Positions 28,184 to 28,913 of a stretch of 64,000 bases of DNA are shown one piece after another. The notes under the pieces are model-generated. The model was not told the origin of the DNA. It did no database searches and saw only the letters and a program-made list of their open reading frames with translations. Location of the stretch: positions 1 to 64,000 of IMG/VR virus record IMGVR_UViG_3300022231_000010. One strand, given 5' to 3'. Source of the DNA: a virus. Position 1 is the first letter of the stretch. Each line of letters starts with the position of its first letter. Both the position numbers and the translations under genes were made by a program.

Positions 28184-28913
28184 GAGCTAAGCGCGTAGCG
28201 CAAAAGCCAAGCTCTGCTGGCAGACCAGAGACCAATAGTCTGCCAAATTTTCTAAATCTCTAAACAGATTTCTCCCAAAGTGAGGAAAGCCCGACTCCGT
28301 GATTGGATAGAACGGATGAAAGGATATCCATCAAAACGCCACTAGAGCGGAACTCATGAGTAAGAAAACAGGAATGCACCATCCGGTAAGCAATGGTGAC
28401 GGTCGGGAGTAACGCCCGGTGTAAGGCAACGCACTGAAAGCGGTGAAGTAAGGAAGATATCCATGCGGACTAAAGCATGGAATGACCATTATGGAGCTTT
28501 CTAAATGAATTCCTGAATCCTTGATTCGTCCCTCGTCATCAAGTAAAGCCCCCGACTATACAGGGCGTGGAGGTAAGACAGATGAAGGTTAAGCCCCATA
28601 TAAGATAGTGGTATGATATACTCAGTCTTCAATAGACTGGAAAGGCACACGGTTGTCAGCAACTGAACCATCAGAACAAAAGGATTTGATTCCCGGAGCT
28701 GAGACATAAGAAGCGAAGCAATACGCCCCATTCTGAGTCTCTTGAAGAATAAGAACCATGAAGGTATATAGCACACTGACTGGAAGATGTAAGAAACCAC
28801 AATACGTGTAATTAGGCTACTGTTCCCGAACAATCTAGCGATTCTGGCCATACAGAACAGCCAAGCCGAGGAATACTTGAAGGCGGGGGAAATAATTTCC
28901 CCAAATAACTACC
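28184..28913 (+). ncRNA. Candidate large structured non-coding RNA (region B, unclassified)
   Basis: 730 nt between the Ubl and E2-like genes. The longest plus-strand ORFs are under 20 codons. Dense hairpins, several closed by GNRA-type loops (for example 28377..28398, 28461..28480, 28886..28902). Confidence 0.5.

Follow-up and report, generated by a model that had tools for sequence, protein, structure and literature searches.

Between the cistrons of operons, hairpins set differential mRNA stability or partial termination, and RNase III sites lie between the cistrons of phage T7. In T4-type phages, the promoter-early stem-loops (PeSL) are mobile regulatory cassettes of hyperplastic regions, short and repeated, which flank open reading frames (ORFs). 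Here we describe a noncoding segment of 730 nucleotides (nt), located at positions 28184-28913 of a 64,000-nt stretch of viral DNA (positions 1 to 64,000 of the IMG/VR record IMGVR_UViG_3300022231_000010; hereafter the window, in which all coordinates are given unless another locus is named). This segment, which we call the gap, separates on the + strand a gene for a ubiquitin-like (Ubl) protein from a gene for a putative E2, within a cassette that also includes a ThiF/E1-like gene. It is a string of short stem-loops without an unusually stable overall fold, and an ORF-free gap occupies the same position in all the related loci that we retrieved. We tentatively favour the reading that these 730 nt are a transcribed, clade-specific intercistronic leader, whose hairpins would set the expression of the Ubl relative to that of the E2 and E1 proteins.

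A hairpin-rich gap without + strand genes

The gap extends from the stop codon of the Ubl-like gene (28181-28183) to the ATG of the E2-like gene (28914). Its limits, its length and its lack of + strand genes confirm a preliminary description of the locus, made from the sequence by a single reader, which had also put all + strand ORFs below 20 codons. This last figure is right for ORFs starting with ATG (18 codons at most) but not for other starts, the longest + strand ORFs wholly within the gap having 21 codons (GTG start) and 23 codons (TTG start); another TTG ORF, of 35 codons (28877-28984), enters the E2-like gene out of frame. Stop codons number 14-18 per frame on the + strand versus 1-5 on the minus strand. 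Since every + frame of the gap contains TAA, TAG and TGA, and since ARAGORN found no suppressor tRNA in the window, stop-codon recoding is ruled out as the cause of the gap. ARAGORN detected no tRNA or tmRNA gene within it either (there are four tRNAs elsewhere in the window). The gap is skewed towards A over T to the same extent as the + strand genes on either side of it, and a scan of its + strand yielded no promoter-like site.

The gap is single-copy, as the rest of the 64-kb window repeats no more of it than chance matches of 14 nt. It has no terminal inverted repeats and no direct-repeat families or iterons. A miniature inverted-repeat transposable element (MITE), an insertion sequence (IS)-like element or another repeated mobile element is rejected, given that terminal inverted repeats and further copies are both lacking. 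A replication origin receives no support from the signs that we looked for (iterons, an AT-rich segment, an inflection of the GC skew at 28 kb). An apparent CsrA-like enrichment of the gap in GGA was dropped, a count by eye giving ~17 occurrences versus ~14 expected, and CTTTCAAA is not enriched across the window as a whole.

Perfect hairpins (stem of at least 6 bp, loop of 3-14 nt) were counted in the gap and in 500 shuffled versions of it that preserve dinucleotide composition. The gap contains 7 distinct perfect hairpins versus 1.4 +/- 1.2 in the shuffles, none of which reaches 7 (0/500). Their density is 9.6 per kb in the gap versus 3.5 per kb across the window, where only ~1% of the 730-nt tiles hold 7 of them. 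All the hairpins listed in the preliminary description were recovered in place. Next to the Ubl-like gene, a 6-bp helix read from the sequence, AGAGCT...AGCTCT (28183-28215), surrounds the mini-hairpin GCGC-GTA-GCGC (28191-28201). It is followed by an 8-bp hairpin, TGGCAGAC-N12-GTCTGCCA (28218-28245), with its tail AAATTTTC ending at 28253, and directly afterwards by AAATCT-CTAAAC-AGATTT (28254-28271). The hairpin scan then gives CACCAT-CCGGTAAGCA-ATGGTG (28377-28398), the 7-bp hairpin TCCATGC-GGACTAAA-GCATGGA (28460-28481), CTTGAT-N12-ATCAAG (28520-28543) and CAGTCT-TCAAT-AGACTG (28623-28639), and a 4-bp hairpin, CGGG-AGTAACG-CCCG (28404-28418), can be read between the first two of these. The last one, GGGGAAA-TAA-TTTCCCC (28886-28902), with a 7-bp stem and a 3-nt loop, ends 11 nt 5' of the E2 ATG. 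All are given as read on the + strand. The GNRA-like loops mentioned in the preliminary description are not found among the perfect hairpins, whose loops measure 3-14 nt and include no GNRA tetraloop. The post-Ubl hairpin has a twin with the same stem (TGGCAGA/TCTGCCA) at 26115-26138, TGGCAGAG...CTCTGCCA followed by CTTCATTTCC; this stem has 2 matches in the window (26115 and 28218) versus 0.25 expected. A terminator scan flagged the twin at 26115 as terminator-like and listed no + strand intrinsic terminator inside the gap.

The minimum free energy (MFE) of the whole gap corresponds to z-scores of -1.57/-1.32 on the + strand and -1.47/-1.55 on the minus strand, and coding controls of ~700 nt from this phage family have a mean z of -1.38 (standard deviation 1.14). 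In 150-nt windows, the mean z is -0.29 in the gap versus -0.70 in the flanking coding DNA. An excess of hairpins combined with a background-level MFE therefore describes a string of short stem-loops rather than an unusually stable overall fold. The preliminary description had proposed a large structured RNA; its noncoding and hairpin-rich character is borne out, but not one large ornate fold, the folding energy being at the level of coding DNA.

The resemblance to the GOLLD (RF01998) and ROOL (RF03087) RNAs, which the same description had brought forward, is not supported by any covariance-model match in Rfam 15, on either strand and with E up to 10. At the gathering score, Rfam 15 recognized only tRNAs in the whole window. 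A permissive scan of both strands of 27900-29000 (E up to 10) reached a best E of 0.2, with no GOLLD, ROOL, raiA, intron or ribozyme among its weak matches, and a scan of 14000-36000 with E up to 1 left the gap empty. Likewise, neither at the gathering score nor with permissive E-values did Rfam match any of the Ubl-E2 gaps in L010 and in 11 related loci. Group I and group II introns had no Rfam match with E up to 10, and the gap is flanked by complete ORFs whose homologues have the same ends, which speaks against an intron. The claimed proximity to tRNAs is not close, the nearest tRNA gene being 4.7 kb away (33629) and a weak tRNA-like match being 1.8 kb upstream (26308-26373). Judged by these comparisons, the gap is a member of no known large-RNA class, and it probably does not form a single large fold.

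The Ubl-E2 gap in related phages

Relatives of the cassette are few. No match to the E2-like protein was found by tblastn against 50,697 phage records, and profiles of the E2 and E1 families retrieved no relatives from IMG/VR and GTDB genomes; in the single metagenome scan, the phage represented by L004 and L005 was the only match. At 50% identity, 1.84 billion proteins yield 17 representatives of the E2 family. As far as these searches reach, the phage lineage is rare and almost without database relatives. Searches through E2, E1 and a Ubl profile brought together 11 distinct loci related to that of the window, some of them also in identical copies. All 11 have the same gene order, namely a gene of ~115-190 amino acids (aa), the Ubl-like gene, the gap, the E2-like gene, the E1-like gene and two or three more genes, with a small ORF preceding E1 in some of the loci. 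The Ubl-like gene stands directly 5' of the gap in every one of them.

An ORF-free Ubl-E2 gap is present in 11/11 related loci, with a length, taken partly from gene coordinates, that ranges from 61 to 774 nt. The gap measures 730 nt in the window, 699 nt in L004, and 716, 722 and 774 nt in L008, L009 and L010, respectively, which constitute clade A; it is shorter in L012 and L013 (clade B; 448 and 441 nt), L018 (400 nt), L014 (372 nt), L011 (329 nt), L017 (270 nt) and L016 (61 nt). The gap of the window is an orphan, known elsewhere only from identical copies on L001-L003. It shows no similarity to the gaps of other clades by blastn, nhmmer, Smith-Waterman or semi-global scores, and blastn returned no match for it among the 50,697 phage records. 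The preliminary description expected a structured RNA to show conservation or covariation among homologues; across clades there is none, and at that level the claim fails.

Within clades the situation is different. The gaps of clade A can be aligned with one another, as can those of clade B, and alignment z-scores against shuffles are 56-131 within clade A versus ~0 for all cross-clade pairs. In both clades, blocks with an identity of 0.82-1.00, reaching 100% over 60 nt and equalling the best coding windows, are separated by stretches at random level (0.22-0.40). For comparison, the short spacer 5' of the Ubl-like gene has an identity of 0.27-0.40 and the four-fold degenerate sites of E2 are saturated (29-32%). 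An example is a nearly invariant 50-mer in clade A, whose conserved block reads TTTTGGAAAAACAGCCCATGGCTCAGACTGAAAAGAAATTCGAGCTGGAT. The conserved blocks of the two clades contain no consistent ORF. To judge from these alignments, the Ubl-E2 junction includes nucleotide-level functional elements, at least in clades A and B, and since the ORF-free blocks of these sister clades are as conserved as the best coding windows, it is plausible that a functional noncoding element is located there.

The clade A sequences allowed further searches of the window and of all the loci, in which an nhmmer profile and two covariance models, R1 (central block) and R2 (3' block), matched only clade A; an exact 23-mer from the conserved block was absent from IMG/VR. 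The E2-like protein of L004 is 47-48% identical to those of L008 and L010, and that of L009 is 45-46% identical to the same two; the gap of L004 is nonetheless unrelated to theirs. Because L004 is as close by its E2 as L009 is, the content of the spacer looks more like having been swapped than having gradually drifted. A 5' homology seen by eye between the window (GCTCTGCTGGCAGAC) and clade A (GCTCCGCCTGGCTGAC) was dropped, as a MAFFT alignment did not reproduce the match; clade A covariation favours another hairpin, GGAC[CTGAGCAT]GTCC.

The most conserved block of clade A (L008 ~4880-4915, and its equivalents in L009 and L010) also contains a micro-ORF, (M/V)(A/T)QTEKKFELD, in which one difference is a synonymous Leu change (TTG vs CTG). 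In L009 it has no start codon, its continuations past the D are unrelated, and nothing corresponds to it in the window; it may encode a leader peptide or have arisen by chance.

Several hairpins of clades A and B have changed on both sides of their stems while keeping the pairing. Inside conserved blocks, GGCTGA/TCAGCC is replaced by GGCCGA/TCGGCC, and CCAATCA/TGATTGG is replaced by CCACTCA/TGAGTGG and CGGATCA/TGATCCG. In clade B, TGGATGT/ACATCCA becomes TGGACGT/ACGTCCA, and GGGGAGAAGG/CCTTCTCCCC becomes GGAGAGAAGG/CCTTCTCTCC. The MFE z of the gaps on the + strand averages ~-2.8. Six relatives range from -3.1 to -5.6, against -1.38 in the coding controls, and the window (-1.3), L004 (-0.85), L013 (-0.9) and L014 (-1.4) are at background level.

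The only features that gaps of different clades have in common are found at their two ends. At the 5' end, a stable hairpin with a CAYTTTC(C)-like tail is situated ~15-90 nt past the Ubl stop in clades A and B, L011, L014 and L016, its equivalent in the window being 28218-28253. At the 3' end, a hairpin and C(C)TTTCAAA precede the E2 ATG by 12-40 nt in six other clades, and the window has the variant GGGGAAATAATTTCCCC-AAATAAC. In L016, the entire gap of 61 nt corresponds approximately to one such hairpin plus CTTTCAAAAAAAATG. The same layout of hairpin, CTTTC, A/C-rich leader and ATG occurs 5' of a few other genes of the phage family. The genes here have no Shine-Dalgarno sequences and their leaders are A/C-rich. 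The start context of E2, AACTACCATG (28907-28916, + strand), is identical to that of Ubl (27985-27994), and this exact 10-mer has just two copies in the 64-kb window, both strands included, namely those at the Ubl and E2 starts.

A possible regulatory leader and its alternatives

We read the gap, with due reserve, as a transcribed leader because it is ORF-free and has an excess of hairpins, and because gene order is kept around it, motifs recur at its ends and sister clades conserve it blockwise. The A-over-T skew resembling that of the + strand genes, the AACTACCATG starts shared by Ubl and E2 and the absence of a + strand promoter-like site support the same reading, as do the hairpins of clades A and B that keep pairing through two-sided changes. 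If this is correct, a + strand transcript of the 141-aa gene and of the Ubl-like gene would meet, 35 nt past the Ubl stop, the hairpin 28218-28245 with its U-rich tail. This hairpin might partly terminate the upstream message or protect it, such that the Ubl mRNA, whose product would be consumed stoichiometrically, would outlast the message for the catalytic E2 and E1. Read-through transcripts would bear a leader of ~650 nt with many short stem-loops, and the last of these (28886-28902), 11 nt 5' of an E2 start devoid of a Shine-Dalgarno sequence, would set the rate of ribosome loading. Transcription of the gap, attenuation or stabilisation by the 5' hairpin and translation control by the 3' hairpin are what we infer; the sequences themselves show the anatomy, the excess of hairpins, the conserved position and end motifs of the gap and the conservation of equivalent spacers within sister clades.

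Several observations weigh against a leader of this kind. Perfect inverted repeats are strand-symmetric, so that roles at the DNA level fit them equally well. Compared with the clear terminator at 39965-39990, in which the GC stem directly precedes TTTTTCTCT, the hairpins 28218-28245, followed by AAATTTTC, and 28886-28902, followed by AAATAAC, do not look like canonical terminators. The folding energy of the gap is at or below the coding background. No relationship is seen between the interiors of different clades, and 61 nt are enough for L016; therefore, most of the 730 nt are not essential to the cassette. Using RNAalifold on the three sequences of clade A, 48 of 145 pairs have changed on both sides, which is above shuffled and slid controls, but coding controls from the same phages, processed with the same pipeline, give 16-40 of 111-166 pairs. 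Clade A does no better than these, and its global covariation count is uninformative because the coding controls match it. The RNAalifold energy of clade A (-101.8 kcal/mol on the + strand vs -103.8 on the minus strand) does not favour either strand.

Instead of a leader, the gap might contain one or more independent, undescribed noncoding RNA genes, inserted between the post-Ubl hairpin and the hairpin preceding E2, with their own signal and trans-acting products, each clade having a different and unrelated RNA cassette at a hotspot. We consider this rather doubtful. It would explain why the ORF-free blocks of clades A and B attain the conservation of the best coding windows, with a maximum of 100% over 60 nt, why alignment scores are bimodal (56-131 within clade A, ~0 between clades) with a pattern in L004 that corresponds to cassette replacement, and why + strand z-scores descend to between -3.1 and -5.6 in six relatives, the coding mean being -1.38. 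RNA genes do occur in other gaps (the tmRNA of L014, tRNAs and the tRNA-like element 26308-26373), and the twin hairpin at 26115 is placed 170 nt 5' of that tRNA-like element, as might be expected of a shared start or stop signal. The gap of the window, however, has no thermodynamic signal, no homologue or Rfam match and no promoter in the scan, and in clade A neither covariation, which is not above that of coding controls, nor the RNAalifold energies, which indicate no strand, bring support. A more general version, in which the junction would be a hotspot of unrelated, clade-specific, ORF-free RNA cassettes of 270-770 nt under nucleotide-level selection, with that of the window as a new structured RNA, either trans-acting or tied to the Ubl conjugation cassette, seems to us questionable. 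At the opposite extreme, the gap would be mostly functionless filler with a fast turnover at a recombination or insertion hotspot, functional only by its end signals and otherwise made of insertion debris. This is unlikely, since an excess of hairpins that 0/500 shuffles reach is not expected of debris, and since the blocks of clades A and B rise well above both the adjacent random-level stretches and the spacer 5' of Ubl; moreover, the length is roughly kept (699-774 nt) in the window, L004 and clade A despite their unrelated sequences. What such a filler would account for is the 12-fold range in length (61-774 nt), with a 61-nt version that keeps just the hairpin and the start motif, the lack of cross-clade similarity in DNA or peptides, the restriction of cross-clade motifs to the ends and a gap in the window that folds no better than coding DNA.

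The strand symmetry of perfect inverted repeats is also what an element acting at the DNA level would display, be it a set of protein-binding dyads or extruded hairpins, such as the promoters of N4-type virion RNA polymerases (vRNAPs), or a replication or packaging site. In the N4 vRNAP promoters, the stem is 5-7 bp long and the loop has 3 nt, particular bases characterize both, and transcription starts a few nt further downstream (PMC4496689). The hairpin 28886-28902 (7-bp stem, 3-nt loop, just 5' of a gene) reproduces this geometry, the stem TGGCAGA/TCTGCCA is present twice (26115 and 28218), and the phage encodes a 3639-aa protein of a size similar to that of the N4 vRNAP. This protein has no detectable similarity to the N4 vRNAP, Pfam, PHROGs or PDB sequences, though; neither iterons nor direct repeats are present, an AT-rich segment is lacking, the GC skew shows no inflection at 28 kb, and loops of 3-14 nt on unrelated stems argue against one common binding protein, all of which makes a DNA-level element improbable. 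A hidden protein gene, either on the minus strand or as a small + strand peptide, is very improbable. A minus-strand ORF of 116 codons (28501-28851) does exist opposite the gap, and a gene finder called a 76-aa part of it on the identical contigs L001 and L002. This ORF has no Pfam match, however, and it is of the kind expected opposite an A-rich strand, because the A-rich + strand depletes minus-strand stops. No related locus keeps an equivalent ORF, and the neighbouring genes are all on the + strand. A six-frame comparison of the gaps found no cross-clade peptide similarity, which led us to reject a hidden peptide conserved across clades.

The phage context and comparison with known systems

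The Ubl-like gene (27992-28183, + strand), taken from the ORF list and aligned with 20 homologues, encodes a 63-aa protein without any Pfam or PHROG match. The C-termini of the Ubl-like proteins have a conserved FRPxASGKA instead of di-glycine, and some homologues have extra basic tails beyond the SGKA; because of these tails, C-terminal processing is suggested. The E2-like gene (28914-29609, + strand), assigned from the ORF list, weak Pfam matches and synteny, encodes 231 aa with an invariant Cys in the motif IPFYNFYExGxICxG. The Pfam family Prok-E2_D matches it with E = 0.038, which is below the curated cutoff, and similarly weak matches around the invariant Cys are found in 8/12 homologues (best E = 0.0038). 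The E2 label is tentative, being based on these sub-threshold Prok-E2_D matches and on the conserved synteny with a solid ThiF/E1. The latter gene (29937-30653, + strand) encodes 238 aa, matches Pfam ThiF with E = 1.5e-17 and has 16 homologues. A small ORF is inserted between the E2-like and ThiF/E1 genes, and further + strand genes of no assigned function lie beyond. Searches of PDB sequences with the E2-like protein and with a 340-aa protein found no match.

Genes elsewhere in this genome had been described as overlapping by 1-4 nt, which applies to the late minus-strand modules alone. The early/middle block of + strand genes, in which the Ubl-E2 gap is located, includes other ORF-poor gaps, at 14533-15136, ~21115-23069 and 25907-26465. 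The first of these measures 604 nt; the second exceeds 1 kb, includes two 27-nt units in tandem (22372-22425) and has an AT skew that falls to ~0. The third is ORF-free over 559 nt and contains the twin hairpin (26115-26138) as well as the tRNA-like match at 26308-26373 (Rfam tRNA, 32.4 bits vs a gathering score of 29), which escaped both ARAGORN and the Rfam scan with the fast filter; no match to a tmRNA was obtained in this third gap. Its counterpart in L014, a long gap 3' of a ~145-aa gene, contains a full-length tmRNA gene (L014 1747-2138, + strand; Rfam RF00023, 108.6 bits, E = 3e-41), adjoined by tRNA genes (also at L014 2227-2356 and 3195-3266).

The only other 500-nt bin of the window that holds 7 perfect hairpins is 34500-35000. 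It includes a tRNA-Tyr gene (34594-34676), a terminator-like hairpin (34841-34858) with TTCACTTTCC after it and, just 5' of the gene at 34986, a hairpin (34942-34961) with GTCCACTTTC after it. A canonical, bidirectional-looking intrinsic terminator, AGCCCTC-TTCG-GAGGGCT (39965-39990) with TTTTTCTCT directly after the GC stem, ends the + strand block at its convergent junction with a giant minus-strand ORF. This ORF (40031-50950) encodes the 3639-aa protein, for which even permissive thresholds gave no match in Pfam, PHROG or PDB sequences and which is similar in size to the virion RNA polymerases of N4-like or crAss-like phages. PHROG matches are also lacking for four more large proteins encoded by the minus-strand modules (two from the presumed late block and two from the left end of the window). 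The lineage thus appears very distant from described phages, because the five large proteins tested, mostly from the late minus-strand genes, are all without PHROG match. On the + strand, the gene 36006-38798 encodes a 930-aa primase/helicase (Toprim; PHROG 239) with an intein-like insert at residues ~558-635 that matches Pfam LAGLIDADG_3 (E = 2.6e-8) and Hom_end (E = 1.5e-4). The L008 homologue also has 930 aa and a LAGLIDADG match; those of the other relatives have 551-589 aa and no such match.

The context of the gap is unusual, as it consists of a phage-borne Ubl/E2/E1 cassette in a lineage almost without database relatives. Should the gap prove functional, a phage conjugation cassette with Ubl, E2-like and ThiF E1 components would have a new regulatory RNA, or a new RNA gene, attached to it. 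The gap could then exemplify how a stoichiometric Ubl and catalytic enzymes are expressed unequally from one gene string, and also be a site where related phages exchange unrelated noncoding cassettes. In practice, it is mainly of use as an object for mapping transcripts and for seeking closer relatives at the nucleotide level.

Among known systems, GOLLD and ROOL are, like the gap, ORF-free stretches of 600-800 nt in phage genomes that also carry tRNA genes. Unlike them, the gap has no covariance-model match, excess folding energy or conserved multi-domain architecture; syntenic gaps are unrelated in sequence and vary from 61 to 774 nt, and the nearest tRNA gene is 4.7 kb away. At present, the gap stands as an orphan noncoding region that is well documented, and not as a new class of RNA. 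The RNA genes of neighbouring gaps, i.e., the L014 tmRNA and the tRNAs, are likewise located in ORF-free early/middle gaps of the same phage family, but unlike those gaps 28184-28913 contains no tRNA, tmRNA or other Rfam or ARAGORN match. With the N4 vRNAP promoters it shares short hairpins a few nt 5' of gene starts, 28886-28902 being comparable by geometry only; in contrast to N4, only this hairpin fits the geometry, most loops have 5-14 nt and the position is in the middle of the genome rather than at its end. Similarly to the PeSL of T4-type phages, it is a stem-loop-bearing noncoding segment at a place where related phages differ by unrelated insertions, but, unlike PeSL, it is single-copy and ORF-free. 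The intercistronic hairpins of operons and the RNase III sites of T7 measure tens of nt, in contrast with the 730 nt of the gap, whose hairpins lack a canonical U-tract, unlike the terminator at 39965-39990. As in those cases, however, stem-loops are found directly after one cistron and before the next on the same strand, and the downstream enzymes are plausibly required in smaller amounts than the upstream product, the Ubl. In this respect, the gap adds a new orphan to a familiar class of phage sequences, the structured noncoding regions between cistrons.

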